From Desulfosoma sp. (lineage in GTDB: Bacteria; Desulfobacterota; Syntrophobacteria; Syntrophobacterales; DSM-9756), in contig JBBFKW010000005.1 of assembly GCA_037481835.1 (NCBI GenBank), positions 32,001 through 96,000 of the forward strand: a stretch of DNA of 64,000 bases, read 5' to 3'. Position numbers and translations under genes: made by a program. Within the stretch, counting starts at the first letter, position 1. The number at the start of each line of letters is the position of its first letter. Of this stretch, positions 1,607-50,131 are shown piece after piece. The notes below the pieces were generated by a model that saw only the letters and a program-made list of their open reading frames with translations, was not told the origin of the DNA and did no database searches.

Positions 1607-1870
1607 AGTCGGGGACTTGGGCTTAGGGGATCGTGTCCGAAGGCGTCATGGCTCGGAAGAAAACATTGGCGCGCACGGTTGGAACGGTGCACCGCCGTGC
1701 GGATGCGATCCCAAGATCCGTCCCTTAAATGGAAAGAAAGGAGGCTCAATCCGAAAAATCCAAGAGACGCCCGCGATCGTTCTGTTTTTCCTCATGTGGT
1801 GACGGTTCCTTATCCCATTGTGCCATGCTGCGCGTGCGACAGCTCATGTGCCTACTGGAGTGGAGAAGCG

Positions 1871-2848
1871 ATGACGAGCAGATCCAAACGTATCAGCCTC
1901 AGCGAAGCGGCGGAAATCATCAAGGACGGGACGCTTTTAACCTTCTCCGGATTCACCATCTGGCGCCGTCCCTGCGCTCTGGTCTACGAACTCATTCGGC
2001 AGAAACGACGCCATCTTCATCTCATCGAAGTGAACAGCGGCCCCCATTCGGAATTCCTCATCGGTGCGGGCTGCGTGGACGTGTGGGAATCCTGCTGGAT
2101 CGGCCACGAACTTTACGGGAAGTATGGCGCCAACCTGGCGCGGCGAGTCCGCCAAAAAGAAATCATTTACGAAGACTACAGTCATGCCGAGATGGCGTTC
2201 CGGTTTCAGGCGGCTGCGGCCGGCATGCCCTTCATGGCCACCCAGACCTCTCTGGGAACCGATATCCACAATCCCGACTACGACATGCTGGGCCGAGCAG
2301 GACTGCGAAACGGCAAGAATCCCAAAATTCCCAGGAAAAAATATCACATCGTCGACGACCCCTTTTTCGGGGACGGCCGTCAGGTGTTGGTTCCCGCCGC
2401 CAAGGTGGACGTGGCCGTCCTGGCGGTGCAGCAGGTGGGCGACGAGGGGACGGTGCGCATTGCCGGCCAGTTTTTTACGGACCCTGAGGTCGCCCGGGCG
2501 GCGGACATCACCATCGTCATCGCCGAGGAGATCGTCCCCGAAGAGTATCTGCGCCACGAATCCCACCTGAACAAGATCCCCAGCTTCCAGGTGGACTACA
2601 TCGTGGAATGCCCGTGGTGCGCCCACCCCACGGGCATGTTCCGTTTCTACGACGTGGACGGCGAATTCCTGCGCAATTTCTACACCCAAACCCGAAGCCA
2701 GGAAGGGTTCAACGAATTCGCCAAGGAATGGATCTTCGGCCTGAATCATGACGGCTATCTCAACAAGCTGGGGGTGCCTCGGCTCGCTCGACTCAAGGCC
2801 AACACGGTATTGAACTACAGCACCCGCGTGGAACGGGGTCGCAAATAA
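1871..2848 (+). CDS. Family I CoA-transferase, alpha subunit (glutaconate CoA-transferase-like)
   Basis: SLSEAAEIIKDG, AAAGMPF, SLGTDI, VDYIVECPWCAHP; paired with the beta subunit. Confidence 0.85.
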   Translation: MTSRSKRISLSEAAEIIKDGTLLTFSGFTIWRRPCALVYELIRQKRRHLHLIEVNSGPHSEFLIGAGCVDVWESCWIGHELYGKYGANLARRVRQKEIIYEDYSHAEMAFRFQAAAAGMPFMATQTSLGTDIHNPDYDMLGRAGLRNGKNPKIPRKKYHIVDDPFFGDGRQVLVPAAKVDVAVLAVQQVGDEGTVRIAGQFFTDPEVARAADITIVIAEEIVPEEYLRHESHLNKIPSFQVDYIVECPWCAHPTGMFRFYDVDGEFLRNFYTQTRSQEGFNEFAKEWIFGLNHDGYLNKLGVPRLARLKANTVLNYSTRVERGRK

Positions 2849-2865
2849 GGAGAAGGGGATCGGCC

Positions 2866-3693
2866 ATGAAAGACATGAAACAACTCGCCCAGCCCGGAGA
2901 ATACACCCTGGGGGATCTCATGACCGTGGCGGCGGCCCGGGAAGTCCGTGACAACGAAGTGGTTTTCGCCGGCACCGGCATGCCCATGATCGCCATCATG
3001 CTGGCCCAAAGGACGCACGCGCCGCACCTCAAGCTCATTTTCGAAGCCGGCACATTGGACGGCCGCCCGAGAGAGTTGCCCACCTCGGTGGGGGATCCGC
3101 GCTGCGAAGTGGGGGCGTCGGTGGCTTCCGGCTTATACGAAGCCTTCAGCATCGCCCAGAGGGGTTACGTGGACCTGGGGTTTCTCGGGGGGGCGGAAGT
3201 GGATGAATACGGCAATGTGAATACCACCGCCATCGGCGATTACCTCAACCCCCTTCTTCGACTTACGGGAAGCGGAGGCAATCCCGATATCAATTCCTTC
3301 GCCAAGCGCACAGTCTACATCATGGTCCACGAAAAGCGGCGATTTCCCAAGAACGTCAGCTACATCACCAGCCCGGGGTGGCGCGTGAAAAACTGGCCCT
3401 CCGGAGAATGGGTCCACCGCCGGGAACTCTACGGAGCCGCCTTTCGCGGGGGGCCGAGCGCGGTCATCAGCACGGCGGGTGTTTTCCGCTTCGACGAAGA
3501 AACCGGCCGGATGTATCTGGACAGCTACCATCCGGGCATGAGCCCTGAAAGGATTCGGGAAATGTGCGAGTTCGATCTCGACATCTCCCGGGTGAGCGGG
3601 GAAACCGTACCCCCGACTTACGAAGAGATCCACCTGATCCATAATGTTTTGGATCCCGACGAGATCTTCCTCGCCAAGCCCCGTAAGGAATAA
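2866..3693 (+). CDS. Family I CoA-transferase, beta subunit
   Basis: VFAGTGMP, IFEAG (catalytic Glu region), GFLGGAEVDEYGNVNTT, LTGSGG. Confidence 0.85.
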   Translation: MKDMKQLAQPGEYTLGDLMTVAAAREVRDNEVVFAGTGMPMIAIMLAQRTHAPHLKLIFEAGTLDGRPRELPTSVGDPRCEVGASVASGLYEAFSIAQRGYVDLGFLGGAEVDEYGNVNTTAIGDYLNPLLRLTGSGGNPDINSFAKRTVYIMVHEKRRFPKNVSYITSPGWRVKNWPSGEWVHRRELYGAAFRGGPSAVISTAGVFRFDEETGRMYLDSYHPGMSPERIREMCEFDLDISRVSGETVPPTYEEIHLIHNVLDPDEIFLAKPRKE

Positions 3694-4695: not shown

Positions 4696-4866
4696 GGGGC
4701 TTACCCCGGCCCGCTGCATGCCGGATCCTCTCCGTTCCTCGTCGCACCTGGGCATCAGGGGTCCACTGGGAGCGCTGGCATCCGAGGCCCGCGTCCCATC
4801 GGGCAACAACTCGAACGGCTCTCCGGCGCATTGGTCCGCCCCCATTGAAGCGGCGATTACGCCCGG

Positions 4867-5682: not shown

Positions 5683-5812
5683 ATAGGGGTAGGAAGGGCT
5701 CGTTGCCGAGTCCCTCCCCTCCGAACCGTACGTGCGGAATTCCCGCATACGGCTCTCCGGTTGGTGGTTTTACCCCGTTAAGGAAAGACGGAATCGTCCC
5801 TGGGCTTGCGCC
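5683..5812 (-). mobile_element. Group II intron 3' remnant (domains V and VI, possibly the last codons of the intron-encoded protein)
   Basis: Minus strand GAGCCGTATGCGGGAATTCCGCACGTACGGTTC (DV, AGC triad, 5755-5723), then GGAGGGGAGGGACTCGGCAACGAGCCCTTCCTACCCCTAT (DVI, ends AY at 5683); no RT ORF or GUGYG 5' end found. Confidence 0.85.
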
Positions 5813-21769: not shown

Positions 21770-22145
21770 CATCCATCCCCATCGTGCGCCTATGATGACC
21801 GCAATTCAGCAGGGGAGGGTCCCCATGGACGATTCCGGAAGGGGGATTCATGGCCTTTCCTGAAAGTTCCTCCTTTGACGCACGCCATGACGCCCTCCCC
21901 GCCGAGTCTTGTTCGCACTCGATTCTACCGGGTTTTCTCCTCCAATTCCATTGATGCGGTTTGTTGGGCCGACGGGCCCGCGGAGGCTTTTTTTCGCCTA
22001 GAACCACAAAAGCCGGAAGGGAGGTGAAACAGTCAATGCACATCTGAGGGGGTTCTGGGACACCGCCGAAGTCGGTGTGTCGCGTGATACCGCGACGATG
22101 TCAGGACATCCGTTTTTGTAGGTCATGTTGGACAGGAGGCCGGGA

Positions 22146-25100
22146 ATGAAGCTGTCGCGTCGAGACTTTCTCAAGATTTCCGGGGCGGCGACGGCGGGTT
22201 TGGCTCTGAGCGGCTGCACGACCATGGGGTTCGAAAAAAAACCCGTGGAAGAAAAGGCGTGGAAGCTCAGAACCAAGGACGCCAAAGAAACGCCCACCAT
22301 ATGCTGTTACTGCGGGGTCGGGTGCGGCATCATTTGCCACACCGACCGACAGACGGGCAAGGTCATCTACACGGAAGGGGACGCCGATCACCCCATCAAC
22401 CAGGGTTCTTTGTGCGCCAAGGGGGCATCGTCCTACCAGCTGGCCGTCAACGACAAGAGGGTGACCAAGGTTCTTTACCGGGCACCCTACAGCGATAAGT
22501 GGGAAGAAAAGTCTTGGGATTGGGCGCTCAAGGAAATCGCCGCCCGCGTCAAAGCGAGCCGAGACAAGAGCTTTACGGAAAAGAACGCCAAAGGCGAAGT
22601 GGTCAATCGGTGTGATGGGATCGCCTCGGTGGGCAGCGCCGCCTTGGACAACGAAGAATGCTGGATCTACCAGGCCATGCTCCGCGCCCTGGGACTGGTC
22701 TACATCGAACACCAGGCCCGCATTTGACACAGCGCCACGGTAGCGGCTCTGGCAGAGTCGTTCGGACGCGGCGCCATGACGAATCATTGGATCGACCTCA
22801 AGAACAGCGACTGCATCCTCATCATGGGGAGCAACGCTGCGGAAAACCATCCCATCTCCTTCCGCTGGATCATGAAGGCCAAGGATCGAGGAGCCACCCT
22901 CATCCATGTGGATCCCCGTTTCACACGCACGTCTTCCAAAGCGGACTTTTACACCGCTTTACGGTCCGGGACGGACATCGCCTTCTTGGGAGGCATGATC
23001 AACTATATCCTCTCCAACAATCTTTACTTCAAAGACTACGTGGTCCACTACTCCAACGCGAGTTTTATCGTCGGAGAGAAATACAGTTTTAAGGACGGAT
23101 TGTTTTCGGGGTTCGACCCGGCGACACGAAAGTATGACAAGAGTACTTGGGCTTATGAACTGGATGAAAACGGAGTCCCCAAGAAAGATTACACCTTAAA
23201 GCATCCCCGCTGCGTCTTCCAGCTGTTGAAGAAACATTATTCGCGATACACTCTGGACAAGGTATCCAAAGTCACCGGAACGCCTAAGGACGATCTTAAG
23301 AAGGTCTACGAACTGTACAGCGCCACGGGAAAGCCGGACAAAGCGGGGACCATCCTTTATGCCATGGGTTGGACGCAGCATACCGTGGGCGTGCAGAACA
23401 TCCGGGCCATGTCCATCATCCAGATTCTTTTGGGCAACATGGGAATTGCCGGAGGCGGGGTGAACGCCCTGCGCGGGGAATCCAACGTGCAAGGGTCCAC
23501 AGACCACGGGCTTCTCTATCACATTTGGCCCGGATACAATCCGGTCCCCACGGGGTCGGTGCCGACCTTGGCCGACTATGTGAAGAAGTACACCCCGGTG
23601 TCGAAAGACCCTATGAGCGCCAACTGGTGGCAGAACCGGCCGAAGTACGTGGTGAGCTTCCTCAAGGCCATGTTTGGTGATGCCGCGGACGCTTCCAACG
23701 ATTTCGGCTATGCGTGGATGCCCAAGCTGGACGACGGCAAGGCCTATAGCTGGTTGGATCTCTTCGATGCCATGTACCGGGGGCAATTCACCGGCTTTTT
23801 CGCCTGGGGTCAAAATCCGGCGTGCAGCGGCGCCAATTCCACCAAAACGCGGGACGCATTGGCCAAACTGGACTGGATGGTCAACGTCAATCTTTTCCAG
23901 AACGAGACGGCCTCCTTCTGGCAAGGGCCCGGCGTGGACCCGAAGAAAATCAAGACGGAAGTGTTTTTCTTGCCGTGCGCCGCCTTTATGGAAAAGGAAG
24001 GGTCCATCACCAACTCGGGCCGTTGGGCCCAGTGGCGCTACAAGGCCCAGGATCCCCCCGGGGACGCCAAACCCGATGGGGACATCATCGTGGAACTCTT
24101 CGAAGAAATCCGGAAACTCTACGCCAAGGGCGGTGGAGCGTTCCCCGATCCCATCTTGAAGCTCAGATGGGACTACGCGACCAACGGCCGTTTCGATCCC
24201 CACAAAGTCGCCCGAATGATCAACGGCGAATACACCAAGGATGTGACGATCCAGGACAAGGCTTACAAGAAAGGACAGCCGGTCACCTCTTTCGCGGCCT
24301 TAAGAGACGACGGGTCCACTTCCAGCGGAAACTGGCTCTACTGCCAGAGCTACAACGAAGCTGGAAACAACATGGCGAAACGCGACACCAAGGACGCCAG
24401 CGGGATCGGTCTCTATGCCAACTGGGCGTGGGCCTGGCCGCTAAACCGACGCATCCTCTACAACCGCGCCTCCGTAGACCTCATGGGACGGCCGTGGAAC
24501 CCTCAACGCCCCGTGATCACTTTTGCCGGGGAAGTGAAGGAAGGCAAGTATGTGTCGTCCAAGTGGGTGGGCGACGTGCCCGACGGCGGCTGGTATCCCA
24601 TGATGAACCCGGACGGCACGCCGCGCACGGACAGCAAGTACCCCTTCATCATGAAGCCCCACGGATTCGCCGACATTTTCGGCCCGGGTCTGGCGGACGG
24701 TCCTTTTCCGGAACATTATGAGCCCATTGAATGTCCCGTGGAAAAGAATCTGTTCAGTTCCCAGTTCACCAATCCCGTGGCTGCGAAGTACGGCACTGAA
24801 AAGGACATCTATAAGACCTGCGATCCCCGGTATCCTTTTGTCGGCACCACGTATCGGGTGACTGAACACTGGCAGACGGGGGTGCTCACGCGCTGGCTGC
24901 CATGGCTGCTTGAAGCGGAACCACAGATCTTCGTGGAAATGAGCGAGCAGCTGGCCAAGCTGCGGGGCATCAAGAACGGAGAAACGGTGGTCGTGGAATC
25001 CGCCCGAGGTTCCGTGGAAGCCGTAGCCATCGTGACCAAGCGCTTCCGGCCTTTCCTCGTCCACGGTCAGGAAATCCACCAGGTGGGGCTGCCATGGCAT

Positions 25101-25229
25101 TACGGATGGGTGTGGCCGCCGCAAGGGGGTGAGAGTGCCAACCTGCTCACGCCGTCCACGGGAGACCCCAACACCCGCATTCCGGAAACCAAGGCTTTTA
25201 TGGTCAACGTGCGAAAGAAGGGAGCCTAG
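22146..25229 (+). CDS. fdhA: Formate dehydrogenase alpha subunit, selenocysteine-containing (Mo/W-bisPGD, Tat-exported)
   Basis: The two ORF-track pieces are in frame across TGA 22725-22727 in context EHQARI-U-HSATVAALAESFGRGAMTNHW; SRRDFLK Tat motif; CCYCGVGC cluster motif. Confidence 0.95.
22743..22761 (+). promoter_or_regulatory. SECIS element of fdhA
   Basis: Hairpin GCGGCTCT-GGC-AGAGTCGT; loop starts after a 23-nt spacer from the UGA. Confidence 0.75.
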
Positions 25230-46026: not shown

Positions 46027-47013
46027 TCAGATGCGAAATTCCACCACATCGCCGTCCTGGAGGACGTAGTCTTTTTGGACCATCTGGCCGTCGAAAACCG
46101 CTTTCCCCCAAATTCTAGCGAATTTCAGTTTTTCCACAAAGTCCTTGTGAATTTTTTCTGCAAGATCCTGGAGCGTGCTTTCCTTCGGCAGGACGAAGGG
46201 GGCCGATTTGTCCGGTTCCTTGCCCGGAGCCTTCGTATAGACTCGGATGATGTCCGAGAGCTGAAAAATCGTCTCCAGGAGCGCGTGGAGCCCTCGCCCC
46301 GAGGCCGTGGACACCCCGACACACGGCAGGCCGCACTGGCTCAATTCCACGAAGGCGAGAAAATCCTCCACATCCGAATCCGTGTCCACCTTGTTGACGA
46401 CGACGATCATTTTCTTGGGGAAAGGCTTCTTGTGGAGATCCGGGGGAAGCGGCTTCCCTTGCGGAAAGACGCGCAATTCGGCGAGGACGTCCAGGGTGTC
46501 TTCCAGCTGCTGGAGCGGATCGGCTTTGAGGTCCACCATGAGAATGACCAGGTCCGCTTTGCGGATGAGGTCCGCCATCCACGGGTCGATGAAGCTCTTG
46601 CTCACGGGCGGGGTATCGATGAGCTGGAACTGGATGTTTTCATAGGGCACCATGCCCGGAGTGGGTTTCCACGTCGTATGTGGAAATTCGGCCACTTCCG
46701 GTGACGCGTTGCTCAGCACTCCCACCAACGAAGACTTGCCCACATTGGGCGCCCCCACGACGACGACCTGGGCGGCCCCTTCCTTATCGATGGCGTAGGA
46801 CAGCCCTTTTCGGCCCGCGCCTTTTCGTTGCTGGGCCTCGGATTTGAACTTGGCGATCTTCCGGCGCAAGTCCGCGCGCAGCTTGTCCGTGCCCTTGTGT
46901 TTGGGCATGATGGTGAGCATCTCTTCAAGGGCTTCGATCTTGGCTTCCGGAGTCTTGGCTTCGCGATATCGCTTTTCGGCTTCGAAATAAGGCGGGGGGA
47001 GATTCGCCGGCAT
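46027..47013 (-). CDS. DRG/OBG-family GTPase with C-terminal TGS domain
   Basis: MPANLPP...PKHKGT; GAPNVGKS, FPHTT, DTP, NKVD; IRVYTK...IH.DF...ARIWG...LQDGDVVE. Confidence 0.9.
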   Translation of the reverse strand: MPANLPPPYFEAEKRYREAKTPEAKIEALEEMLTIMPKHKGTDKLRADLRRKIAKFKSEAQQRKGAGRKGLSYAIDKEGAAQVVVVGAPNVGKSSLVGVLSNASPEVAEFPHTTWKPTPGMVPYENIQFQLIDTPPVSKSFIDPWMADLIRKADLVILMVDLKADPLQQLEDTLDVLAELRVFPQGKPLPPDLHKKPFPKKMIVVVNKVDTDSDVEDFLAFVELSQCGLPCVGVSTASGRGLHALLETIFQLSDIIRVYTKAPGKEPDKSAPFVLPKESTLQDLAEKIHKDFVEKLKFARIWGKAVFDGQMVQKDYVLQDGDVVEFRI

Positions 47014-47081
47014 GGATCACACCTCCTCGCCGTCGCACGTGTGTCCGTTGGGATTTTCAACCTACAGAATGGGATCCGTTC

Positions 47082-47110
47082 TTGTCAATGACGTCTCGAG
47101 CGGGTATAGA
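47082..47110 (+). promoter_or_regulatory. Candidate sigma70 promoter of the small selenoprotein gene
   Basis: TTGTCA -17 nt- TATAGA; overlaps a minus-strand TTGACA (47088-47083) facing the GTPase gene. Confidence 0.5.
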
Positions 47111-47144
47111 CGGCGTGTCGACTTCCAACGAGAAAGGATCTTCC

Positions 47145-47315
47145 ATGTTGTCATGCCCGCAATGCGGCGGCCCTCTCCACTGGATTCGGCAATGAAGGCG
47201 CCAGCTGTGGCGCTGCACGGCGTGCCGCGTGGATTATACTTTGGAAAAACTTGCCGCCTTGCTAGATGAGGAGCTCGAAGAGCAGTTGGGCGGAATCCGT
47301 GTGGACAGGCTCTAG
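47145..47315 (+). CDS. Small dual-CXXC selenoprotein (UGA read-through; absent from the ORF track)
   Basis: MLSCPQCGGPLHWIRQ-U-RRQLWRCTACRVDYTLEKLAALLDEELEEQLGGIRVDRL*; SD AGAAAGGA; TGA at 47193-47195; hairpin GCGCTGCAC-GGC-GTGCCGCGT with the same loop and spacing as the fdhA SECIS. Confidence 0.82.
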
Positions 47316-47345
47316 CCGCAGGCCCGGCGCGGGCCCGCGGCTTTT
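47314..47345 (+). terminator. Probable intrinsic terminator after the small selenoprotein gene
   Basis: AGCCGCAGGCCC-GGCGC-GGGCCCGCGGCT followed by TTT. Confidence 0.55.
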
Positions 47346-47381
47346 GGCCCGAAAAGTCGAGACAGGTTTTTCTCTCGGCGT

Positions 47382-50045
47382 TTACGAAGCCAGTTTCGCC
47401 TCGAGGATTTCCTCAGCGCGCCTCAAAGCCTCCGGGAGTTTTTCCGGAAGGTTCCCCCCGGCCTGCGCCATGTCCGGTCGGCCTCCACCGCTTCCCCCCA
47501 CCACCCGGGCCACCTCTTTGATCACTTCACCGGCATGGATTTTCCCGGTCAAATCCTTGGTGACTCCCACCAGCAAGAACACCTTGCCGTCGTGATGGGC
47601 TCCCAGGACCATGACCCCGGAACCGATCCGCTCTTTGAATCGGTCGTTCATTTCCCGCAAGGCCTTGGGATCGGTGGCCTCCACCTGCCGCACCAAGACC
47701 TTGACTCCGGCCATCTCTTTCGCCTCATCCAACAGATCCAGGGATTTCTTAGCCGTCATGGAGCTCTGGACGGCCTCCAGCTGCTTTTCCAGTTCCTTGA
47801 TCTGTCCCAGGAGCTTTTCGAGGCGATCCGGCACTTCTTCCGGCTGCGCCTTCAGGCGCCGCGCGGCCGCCTCCAGCAGTCGGCGCTGTTCGTGCCAAAA
47901 GCGCAGGGCGTGACGGCCCGTGAGGGCTTCAATGCGGCGCACTCCCGCCGCCACGCTGGATTCCTGAACAATGACAAAAGAGCCGATATCTCCGCTGCGT
48001 TCGGTATGGGTGCCGCCGCACAGTTCCTTGCTGAAGTCGGCGATTTCCACAAGGCGGACCGTTTCTCCGTATTTTTCTTCGAAAAGGGCCATGGCTCCCG
48101 TGCGTATGGCTTCATCAAAAGCCATGACGTGCACCCGAAGCGGCCGATTTTCCCAAATGGCTTGGTTGACCCGCCATTCGATTTCGTGGAGTTCTTCCGG
48201 TGTCACGGCCGTAAAATGGGTGAAGTCGAATCGCAGCCTTTCGGGGGCCACCAAGGAACCCGCCTGCTTCACGTGATCCCCGAGCACGTCCCGGAGCACG
48301 CGATGGAGGATGTGGGTTGCCGTGTGGTTGAGCGCCGTGTCTTTGCGACTTTGGGCATCCACCTTCAGGGTTACCGTATCTCCCGGGCGAAGCTCCCCGT
48401 TTTCGATGCGCACCATGTGCACCCAAAGGTCACCGGGCAGGCGGTGGGTGTCTTCCACGACGGCCGAAACGCCGGGGCCTTCCATAGTCCCTTTATCCCC
48501 CACCTGACCTCCGGCTTCCCCGTAAAACGGCGTGCGCTCGACCACCACTTCCACTCGGCTTCCCGGCCCGGCCGCATCCACAAGCGTCCCGCCTTGGATG
48601 AGGGCCGCCACCCGGCTTTCCGTTTGCAGTTGGTCGTAGCCCACAAACTCGGTACGAACCCCTTCGGCGGAAAGTTTTCGGTACGCTTCGGAAATTTCCC
48701 GTTCCCCACTGCCTTTCCAATGGCGGCGGGACTGTTCCCGTTGGCGCTCCATGAGCCGGTCGAATTCGGCTTGATCCACCTGCAAGCCTAATTTTCGGGC
48801 CATGTCCGTCACGATGTCGATGGGAAAGCCGTAGGTGTCGTAGAGCTTGAACACGAGAGAGCCCGGGACCGTCCGAGCCCCTTCGTCTTGCAGGCGGGCC
48901 ATTTCGTTGTGCAGGAGTTTCAGGCCGTGGTCCAGGGTTTCGCTGAAGCGTTCCTCCTCATGGAGGATAACCCGGGAAATGTAGCTGCGGTTTTCCAGCA
49001 ATTCGGGATACACATCCGCCATGGCGTGCATGACGGCTTCCACCACGCTGTGCAGGAAAGGCCGATCCAGACCCAGGAATCTTCCGTGGCGCAACGCCCG
49101 CCGAATCACACGGCGCAGGACGTATCCGCGGCCTTCGTTGCTCGGCAGCACGCCGTCCCCGATGAGAAACGCCGCCGCCCGCCCATGATCCGCAATGACC
49201 TTGAAGGAGACGTCCTTTTCCGGATCATCGCCGTAGCGCAACCCCGCCTGGGCGCCGATGGCCTCCATCATGGGCGCAAAGAGATCCGTGTCGTAGTTGG
49301 AGGGCACCTTTTGGATGACGGCCGCAATCCGTTCCAACCCCATACCCGTGTCGATGCTCGGCTTGGGCAAAGGTTCCAAGGTGCCGTCTTCTTTCCGGTT
49401 AAACTGCATAAAAACCAGGTTCCAGAGCTCCAAAAAGCGGTCGCAATCGCATCCCGGTCGGCACTCGGGCCGGCCACACCCCATGGCCTCCCCTTGGTCG
49501 ATGAGGATTTCCGAACACGGGCCGCACGGACCGGTATCCCCCATGGCCCAAAAATTGTCCTTGGTGGAAAAGGTCAGGATCCGCTCCGGGGGAAGGTAGC
49601 GTTTCCAATAGTCCCGCGCTTCTTCATCGGGCCCCAGGCCCATGGCGGCGTCGCCCTCGTGGATCGTGGCGTAGAGCTTGTCCTTGGGCAGGCCCATTTC
49701 GGCGGTGAGGAATTCCCAGGCAAATTCCACGGCTTCCTTCTTGAAATAATCCCCGAAGGAGAAATTGCCCAGCATTTCGAAGAAGGTGTGATGGCGCGCC
49801 GTATATCCGACGTTTTCCAGGTCGTTGTGCTTTCCCCCCGCCCTCATGCACTTTTGGCTCGTGGTGGCTCGGCTGTATTCCCTCTTTTCCTCCCCCAGAA
49901 AACAGCGTTTGAATTGGTTCATGCCGGCGTTGGTGAACAGCAAAGTGGGGTCGTCATGGGGAATGAGCGACGAGCTCTTGACGATGGTGTGGCCTCGGTC
50001 ACGAAAGAATTCCAAGAATCTTCTGCGGATTTCACTGGCCTTCAT
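47382..50045 (-). CDS. alaS: Alanine--tRNA ligase
   Basis: DPTLLFTNAGMNQFK, HHTFFEMLGNFSFGDYFK, DTGMGLER, NHTATH, ELCGGTH, GGGRPDMAQAGG. Confidence 0.98.
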   Translation of the reverse strand: MKASEIRRRFLEFFRDRGHTIVKSSSLIPHDDPTLLFTNAGMNQFKRCFLGEEKREYSRATTSQKCMRAGGKHNDLENVGYTARHHTFFEMLGNFSFGDYFKKEAVEFAWEFLTAEMGLPKDKLYATIHEGDAAMGLGPDEEARDYWKRYLPPERILTFSTKDNFWAMGDTGPCGPCSEILIDQGEAMGCGRPECRPGCDCDRFLELWNLVFMQFNRKEDGTLEPLPKPSIDTGMGLERIAAVIQKVPSNYDTDLFAPMMEAIGAQAGLRYGDDPEKDVSFKVIADHGRAAAFLIGDGVLPSNEGRGYVLRRVIRRALRHGRFLGLDRPFLHSVVEAVMHAMADVYPELLENRSYISRVILHEEERFSETLDHGLKLLHNEMARLQDEGARTVPGSLVFKLYDTYGFPIDIVTDMARKLGLQVDQAEFDRLMERQREQSRRHWKGSGEREISEAYRKLSAEGVRTEFVGYDQLQTESRVAALIQGGTLVDAAGPGSRVEVVVERTPFYGEAGGQVGDKGTMEGPGVSAVVEDTHRLPGDLWVHMVRIENGELRPGDTVTLKVDAQSRKDTALNHTATHILHRVLRDVLGDHVKQAGSLVAPERLRFDFTHFTAVTPEELHEIEWRVNQAIWENRPLRVHVMAFDEAIRTGAMALFEEKYGETVRLVEIADFSKELCGGTHTERSGDIGSFVIVQESSVAAGVRRIEALTGRHALRFWHEQRRLLEAAARRLKAQPEEVPDRLEKLLGQIKELEKQLEAVQSSMTAKKSLDLLDEAKEMAGVKVLVRQVEATDPKALREMNDRFKERIGSGVMVLGAHHDGKVFLLVGVTKDLTGKIHAGEVIKEVARVVGGSGGGRPDMAQAGGNLPEKLPEALRRAEEILEAKLAS

Positions 50046-50131
50046 CAAAGGTTCTCCTGTTTTTCAAACCCTCGGCGACAATATCCCGTGCTGAGAACTA
50101 TCCGGGTGGGCGGTGTTCCAAGCTCCGGGCC

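Follow-up and report, generated by a model that had tools for sequence, protein, structure and literature searches.

Is the apparently empty gap between a GTPase gene and alaS in the window (the whole 64,000-nucleotide stretch of DNA analysed here) occupied by a gene and, if so, how is the TGA codon that interrupts its reading frame decoded? A frame that opens at the ATG of 47145 and closes at the TAG of 47313-47315 is interrupted solely by the TGA at 47193-47195. This small gene lies on the plus strand between two minus-strand genes, divergent from the GTPase gene and convergent with alaS:

46027-47013, minus strand: TGS-domain GTPase of 328 residues (ORF cluster with MMR_HSR1 and a C-terminal TGS domain)
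47145-47315, plus strand: predicted small selenoprotein coding sequence, 56 residues, TAG stop included (match to NCBIfam NF041197, 59.9 bits; aligned loci)
47193-47195, plus strand: predicted selenocysteine (Sec) codon of residue 17, an in-frame TGA (Sec/Cys column of the alignment; other metagenome contigs)
47382-50048, minus strand: alaS (ORF cluster with class II alanyl-tRNA synthetase domains)

With TGA read as Sec (U) the translation is MLSCPQCGG..RQ-U17-RRQLWRCTAC..VDRL. Within its 56 residues are the motifs of a dual-CxxC small protein, C4-x2-C7, R15-Q-U17 and C24-x2-C27, and its tail is an acidic helix ending in IRVDRL. We conclude that 47145-47315 is a real gene of 56 codons in the GTPase-alaS gap that encodes a zinc-ribbon-like protein, and that its internal TGA is almost certainly read as Sec. 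The full reading is of a stand-alone plus-strand gene of the NF041197 family, the UGA17 codon of which would be decoded as Sec by means of SelB and an RNA hairpin to give a zinc-ribbon-like protein with a presumed selenolate chemistry. Taken as a whole, we regard this reading as highly probable.

The most direct objection is that the TGA is a genuine stop codon, the locus then being explained by pseudogene decay, by misassembly or by a pair of unrelated micro-ORFs (16 and 28 codons). Translation table 11 indeed splits the frame into two ORFs, 47082-47195 (37 codons) and 47229-47315 (28 codons). However, termination at the TGA would give a 16-residue product having one knuckle only, the half-domain foreseen in a preliminary description of the locus made from the sequence. 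The promoter hexamers, ribosome-binding site, ATG, TGA and TAG claimed in that description were all present in the sequence where it had put them. The codon itself recurs in contigs assembled from other sequencing runs. Contigs of two runs of one study (X3 and X4) span 47050-47400 with 1 and 3 differences from the window, none of them at the TGA, and a 186-nt contig found in two further runs (X5 and X6, possibly one data set filed twice) is identical to the window. Within the gene the contigs of the other runs differ from the window at one place, 47264, where the third position of a codon has changed without altering the residue. Across contigs from other studies the TGA is thus identical.

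Relatives of the gene speak to the same objection. A six-frame search of 41 related genomes, a set that includes the window's own genome, found 35 with a match over the full length and a single in-frame TGA, and these positives span three taxonomic families of the order. When the search was extended to a sample of the phylum, 53 of 301 genomes had a match at E <= 0.001, with one TGA in 37 and no stop codon in 16. Alignment of 53 extracted loci showed both flanks of the TGA to be conserved and the Sec column to be occupied by TGA in 46 loci and by a Cys codon (TGC or TGT) in 7, the pattern of two-sided conservation with Sec or Cys at the column that the preliminary description had proposed to look for. 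Five positions of the protein alignment are invariant (C4, C7, U/C17, C24 and C27) and an Arg two residues from the carboxy terminus is nearly so. The small gene is more than a chance frame because the TGA falls at one invariant aligned column in 46 of the 53 loci. As a separate observation, 21 of the 46 UGA forms also terminate with TGA (L010, L012, L017, L018, L020-L022, L024, L026, L029 and L030 among them); in such a short gene TGA would act first as a Sec codon and then, about 38-39 codons further on, as the terminator.

Searching 1.84 billion database representatives with a profile gave 274 relatives at E <= 0.001. The best 150 were examined, with the exclusion of 12 longer than 130 residues. 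Among these best 150, 100 fit the full-length pattern and have at the Sec column Cys (91), Trp (6), Arg (1), Asn (1) or Phe (1). The Asn case is a one-residue indel with Cys adjacent and the Phe case is an unrelated double ribbon. A further 38 were off-pattern, and 30 of those are fragments of <=45 residues that begin after the Sec column. Such post-column fragments, many of 35-37 residues, could be taken to favor a genuine stop, but they are the signature of truncated calls on Sec forms. The 6 Trp entries are presumably cases in which gene callers translated the TGA as Trp, since two of the 6 also run through a terminal TGA. Homologs with Trp or Arg at this position had been named in advance as evidence against Sec; given 91 Cys among the 100 representatives against 6 Trp that are likely misread TGA codons and 1 Arg, that evidence did not materialize. 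The family is mis-called widely in public databases, for example in P0096-P0152, P0011 and P0048 among the best 150 representatives. Together, the column and the independent contigs indicate that the TGA is due neither to error nor to gene decay. With the conserved flanks, the Cys codons in 7 loci and the 91 Cys representatives all standing against it, we consider a genuine stop exceedingly improbable.

The protein proved to belong to a known family. Its match to the NCBIfam equivalog model NF041197, "dual CXXC motif small (seleno)protein", reaches 59.9 bits, where the cut-off is 40 (E 1.9e-16), and aligns residues 4-56 to model positions 1-53 of 53. All 12 of the diverse homologs tested, among them some with Cys and some with Trp at the Sec column, also passed this model. 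NCBI applies the family name to a Desulfobulbus oralis protein; for a fragment of 35 residues from a Syntrophobacteraceae MAG the label there is 'hypothetical protein'. A literature search for 'NF041197' gave a 2026 review as its sole match, and a table of that review equates NF041197 with 'hypothetical protein OS_HP3', motif RxU, citing Zhang & Gladyshev 2007 (PMC13188914). Hence, the suggestion in the preliminary description that the family might already be catalogued was correct: judged by its sequence, the window protein is a member of NF041197, which is the known selenoprotein family OS_HP3.

OS_HP3 is described as one of six new selenoprotein families of the Olavius symbionts in the 2007 paper, which counts 2 selenoprotein genes and 0 Cys homologs for it and shows a SECIS prediction in Figure 5E (PMC1976440). 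It is also listed in a table of a 2022 review (PMC9312934), and a report on the deep-Sep program names OS_HP3 as the one known selenoprotein missed in Desulfosarcina widdelii (PMC12013277). The passages on OS_HP3 in these four sources (PMC1976440, PMC13188914, PMC9312934 and PMC12013277) give it no function. The window protein shares with the family its length, its two CxxC motifs, the R-x-U motif, a predicted SECIS directly downstream of the UGA and the occurrence of both Sec and Cys forms, and has no essential differences from it. The 0 Cys homologs entered for OS_HP3 in the 2007 account (PMC1976440) contrast with the many seen today (91 with Cys among the best 150 representatives). The gene call is therefore correct but concerns an already known family, predicted in 2007 and curated by NCBI, and not a new kind of thing.

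Given a conserved UGA, we turn to how it would be read. The genome contains selA (537.6 bits), selB (411.3 bits), selD (377 bits) and a canonical tRNA-SeC with anticodon TCA, which reads UGA as tRNA-Sec(UCA); each of the four genes that the preliminary description wished to see confirmed is there, its selC being this tRNA. As the match to selD (contig C9:80257-81183, plus strand) includes one in-frame TGA, the selenophosphate synthetase is probably itself a selenoprotein. The window also carries a second gene with an internal TGA, for which we keep the name fdhA given in the preliminary description. It lies at 22125-25229 on the plus strand with its TGA at 22725-22727, and its product, 1034 residues long with Sec at position 201 (U201), resembles the alpha subunit of formate dehydrogenases.

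The genome has in addition a second SelB-like gene (277.5 bits, cut-off 242), which lies about 1.1 kb from a 92-nt tRNA on contig C21:4209-7326. Positions in the extracted locus, L056, are:

1650-3614, minus strand: second SelB-like gene (profile scores)
4736-4827, minus strand: 92-nt tRNA (Rfam, ARAGORN)

Rfam scores this tRNA as tRNA-Sec at 53.1 bits (cut-off 47) and ARAGORN calls it tRNA-Cys with anticodon GCA. Pairs of selC* and selB* genes with GCA or UCA anticodons are described for Syntrophobacterales and Desulfobacterales in PMC5389517, and the two genes match the pair as it is presented there. A SelB-like gene beside a tRNA-Sec-like tRNA raises the alternative that UGA17 is recoded to cysteine, or passed by near-cognate read-through, instead of being read as Sec. 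However, the GCA anticodon reported by ARAGORN pairs with UGC and UGU, not with UGA, and the second tRNA should thus leave Sec reading unchanged. The canonical tRNA-SeC(TCA) with selA, selB and selD is present, and UGA has been kept over three taxonomic families though a single base change would give a Cys codon. We rate cysteine recoding or read-through as very improbable and take the UGA to be decoded as Sec by the ordinary bacterial route.

That route would require an RNA signal close behind the UGA. A well known bacterial example of a SelB-dependent SECIS is that of E. coli fdhF. The candidate in the small gene is the following:

47207-47228, plus strand: SECIS-like hairpin over codons W22-R23-C24-T25-A26-C27-R28 (fold, covariation)

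The preliminary description had likened this stem-loop to that of fdhA in both loop and spacing. The fdhA hairpin has a clean 9-bp stem and a GGC loop that follows the UGA after 23 nt and sits at nt 27-29 from the UGA. In one register the small-gene hairpin folds as CGC-U-GCAC[GGC]GUGC-C-GCG, with its GGC loop (47219-47221) likewise at nt 27-29 from the U of UGA. The likeness thus stands for the position of the hairpin directly 3' of the UGA, the G in the apical loop and the loop coordinates, but the hairpin of the small gene is shorter, and the GGC-loop register is not its minimum-energy fold: the local minimum uses a second register, in which a U is bulged and the loop is ACG (47217-47219). 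The hairpin of the small gene also has a U.C mismatch where most members of NF041197 show U.G.

An ungapped alignment of 45 distinct UGA forms likewise forms a hairpin 3' of the UGA. The Arg and Cys codons at the start of the second knuckle (CGC UGC) make up its 5' arm and the second Cys codon plus the next Gly codon (UGC GGC) its 3' arm, and the 7-nt loop comprises the two inner CxxC codons and the first letter, U, of the second Cys codon. Pairing holds in 82.2% of the cells of the 7-pair stem, and the covariation score of 0.161 was reached by none of 500 shuffles (0.118 +/- 0.012), with slid controls giving at most 0.086. Only 3 pairs changed on both sides, and 107 of the 500 shuffles do as well. 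The folding check suggested for the region downstream of the UGA therefore gave a divided answer: the hairpin is kept across the UGA forms, but RNAalifold alone gives 4 pairs at -1.85 kcal/mol and single-sequence fold z-scores are unremarkable (0.45, 0.22 and -0.39). Rfam at gathering thresholds gave no SECIS match over the whole window. Elsewhere in the window (5683-5757, minus strand) Rfam places a group II catalytic intron domain (RF00029, 56.1 bits, cut-off 40).

Synonymous recoding of the UGA forms gave a mean z of -1.27 (n=45), with negative values in 42 of the 45, and the window gene had a z of -1.34, with 10% of its recodes folding equally well. The Cys forms gave a mean z of -1.09 (n=7), and the similarity of these values means that the recoding null does not separate UGA from Cys forms. 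The presence of GG in the loop fails to discriminate as well, since all 7 of the 7 Cys forms have it along with 35 of 44 UGA forms. The residue just after the first Cys of the second CxxC behaves differently: Arg or Lys occupies this position in 44 of 52 UGA forms (codons CGG, AGG, AAG and CGU) versus 7 of 98 Cys forms, in which Pro is commonest (34/98). Statistical support for a SECIS-like hairpin is modest, and this residue bias appears to be the clearest sign of coupling between RNA and protein. As the hairpin consists of codons of a functional CxxC, the RNA and protein constraints overlap. In the proposed mechanism SelB would bring Sec-tRNA(UCA) to the hairpin that begins about 14 nt after the UGA. 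The second-knuckle codons would double as the stem, with Arg-Cys in one arm and Cys plus the codon after it in the opposite arm, and the inner pair of codons would provide a G-containing apical loop.

The small gene also seems equipped with expression signals of its own:

47082-47110, plus strand: putative promoter, TTGTCA (47082-47087), 17 nt, TATAGA (47105-47110) (sequence, genus conservation)
47131-47138, plus strand: Shine-Dalgarno-like AGAAAGGA, 6 nt upstream of the ATG (sequence, genus conservation)
47314-47345, plus strand: terminator-like GC hairpin (47314-47342) followed by TTTT (fold, genus conservation)

Within four genomes of the genus CTTGTCAATG of the putative promoter is invariant and the second hexamer retains TAT at equal spacing. 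The AAGGA upstream of the ATG is likewise invariant in the four genus members. The terminator-like hairpin folds at -24.4 kcal/mol (z -1.66) with four T after it on the plus strand only. It is found in all four genus members with altered stem letters, and a T-run follows it in 3 of the 4. A generic consensus scan of 46900-47500 for sigma-70 promoters and terminators gave 0 promoter-like and 0 terminator-like sites, because TATAGA does not end in T and the rules of the scan ask for a longer T-run. Thus, the claim of a promoter and a terminator belonging to the gene survives in part: hexamers and spacing are present and partly kept in the genus, as is the GC hairpin, but neither element is called by the generic scan and the T-run has just 4 T. 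Taken together, the predicted signals fit an independent plus-strand transcription unit for the small selenoprotein gene.

The neighborhood of the gene varies over the phylum. Among the 53 loci the GTPase cluster is found at 21 and the alaS cluster at 20, all in part of the order, and 7 syntenic loci have no GTPase gene and are adjoined instead by a sigma-70 gene. In one genus (g39) Fur, FeoB and solute-binding-protein genes are neighbors in 5 of 5 loci scanned (the genus has 7 loci). An HI0933-type flavoprotein and FtsZ adjoin Cys forms, and many other unrelated neighbors occur elsewhere in the phylum. No gene neighbor is conserved across the phylum in the 53 loci. Of 158 candidate ORFs in these neighborhoods, 146 entered the domain search; L049 and L051 contributed none of their 12, these being near-duplicates. 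We take the neighboring GTPase to resemble the DRG type of archaea and eukaryotes. We do not claim it as a functional partner, and read the synteny as inherited order, the neighbors being different across the phylum.

What might the protein do? An AlphaFold2 model made with 53 sequences (pLDDT 85, pTM 0.62) has strands at residues 10-15, 20-24 and 30-32 and helices at 33-39 and 42-48, and residue 17 falls in the turn between the first two strands. Foldseek against the PDB gave no match at E <= 0.001. Its best hit was ZifS (8yoz_B, E 0.098) followed by Rpb9/C11-type ribbons, and the RNA polymerase ribbon matches (Pol III subunit chains) covered 31-32 aligned columns with an rmsd of about 2 Å. 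VIA-align over 48,161 chains had a best Z of 3.6, with none reaching Z 5, and the matches of both programs are generic zinc-ribbon or rubredoxin-knuckle matches only. All Pfam zinc-ribbon families scored below their cut-offs (the best, Zn_ribbon_recom, had 19 bits versus 25.3), and a profile run against PDB sequences found HypA (E 3e-4, a partial match of 32 positions), YfgJ (E 3.6e-4) and nothing else. A literature search that followed up ZifS returned nothing on TTHA0897 and 'ZifS' only as materials chemistry. The fold would thus be zinc-ribbon-like in a generic sense only. Like the ribbons of ZifS, Rpb9/C11 and archaeal TFS, the model has two CxxC knuckles flanking a β-hairpin plus a third strand, but there is no sequence-level relationship and the hairpin tip of those proteins has no Sec or Cys. 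TFS-type ribbons carry acidic residues with a catalytic role at this tip.

On this fold the two CxxC knuckles probably hold one metal ion, presumably zinc, by their four Cys residues and so stabilize a three-stranded ribbon, which would be followed by the acidic helical tail with the R-x-D-R-L carboxy terminus conserved in the family. Sec17 would lie in the basic turn (R-Q-U-R-R) of the β-hairpin, and the basic flanks are a family trait, with R/K at position -2 in 45 of 46 UGA forms and at +1 in 44 of 46. The placement of Sec between the two knuckles in the preliminary description is true of the sequence, but the model puts Sec17 in the hairpin turn, from which we infer that it stands apart from the metal-binding knuckles and is likely to be exposed and reactive. 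An exposed selenolate on a metal-stabilized scaffold might then perform thiol/selenol redox or transfer chemistry with a partner. This is our best guess for the function, although we place it somewhat below an even chance. A Cys within the last seven residues is found in 35 of 46 UGA forms of NF041197 and in 43 of 98 Cys forms. The taxonomic family f1, to which the window protein belongs, departs from these UGA forms, as the carboxy-terminal Cys is absent from the window protein and from 8 examined members of f1. A fixed Sec-Cys (selenenylsulfide) pair therefore cannot be the general mechanism.

A different view of the same residues makes Sec17 one of the metal ligands: the five invariant Cys/Sec positions, joined in many lineages by a sixth, carboxy-terminal Cys, would make up a five-ligand or two-metal site. 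The protein would then serve as a chaperone or sensor for a metal or metalloid instead of in redox chemistry. That the invariant positions number five, not four, agrees with this view, as do the weak profile match to HypA, a nickel-insertion protein with a structural zinc site, the weak match to YfgJ, a two-zinc protein with a Cys aligned to the Sec column, and the Fur-family, FeoB and solute-binding-protein genes that adjoin the gene in genus g39. However, residue 17 of the model is in a turn between strands of 5-6 residues, which suggests a distance from the knuckles, the PDB matches are partial ones such as any CxxC-rich query yields, and the Fur/FeoB neighborhood is limited to that one genus. 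We consider a metal-ligand role for Sec17, the main rival, unlikely and retain selenol-based chemistry as the working view of function.

A more speculative extension of selenol chemistry, which we think improbable, is a 'selenol finger' in which the ribbon scaffold presents the selenolate at a basic β-hairpin tip for docking with a nucleic-acid complex or a partner enzyme, while the RNA signal and the metal site co-evolve. If this were true, the conserved R-x-D-R-L carboxy terminus would be a docking handle. Since the SECIS would be written in second-knuckle codons, gain or loss of Sec would force a change of knuckle residue, with Arg/Lys typical where UGA is used and Pro where Cys is. The family would then illustrate how a metal site and an RNA signal can co-evolve in nature within the same 20 nucleotides.

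The discovery value of the finding is small, in that the family was predicted in 2007, has a curated NCBI model and gives its name to RefSeq proteins. The practical value is that ordinary gene callers miss or truncate NF041197 genes, and hence annotation of the genome from which the window comes should add the small gene. The predicted mini-protein with its five invariant Cys/Sec positions is widespread. The coupling of the SECIS loop to second-knuckle residues (Arg/Lys in 44/52 versus 7/98) could aid the design of experiments, and the many Cys forms are natural U-to-C variants for comparison.
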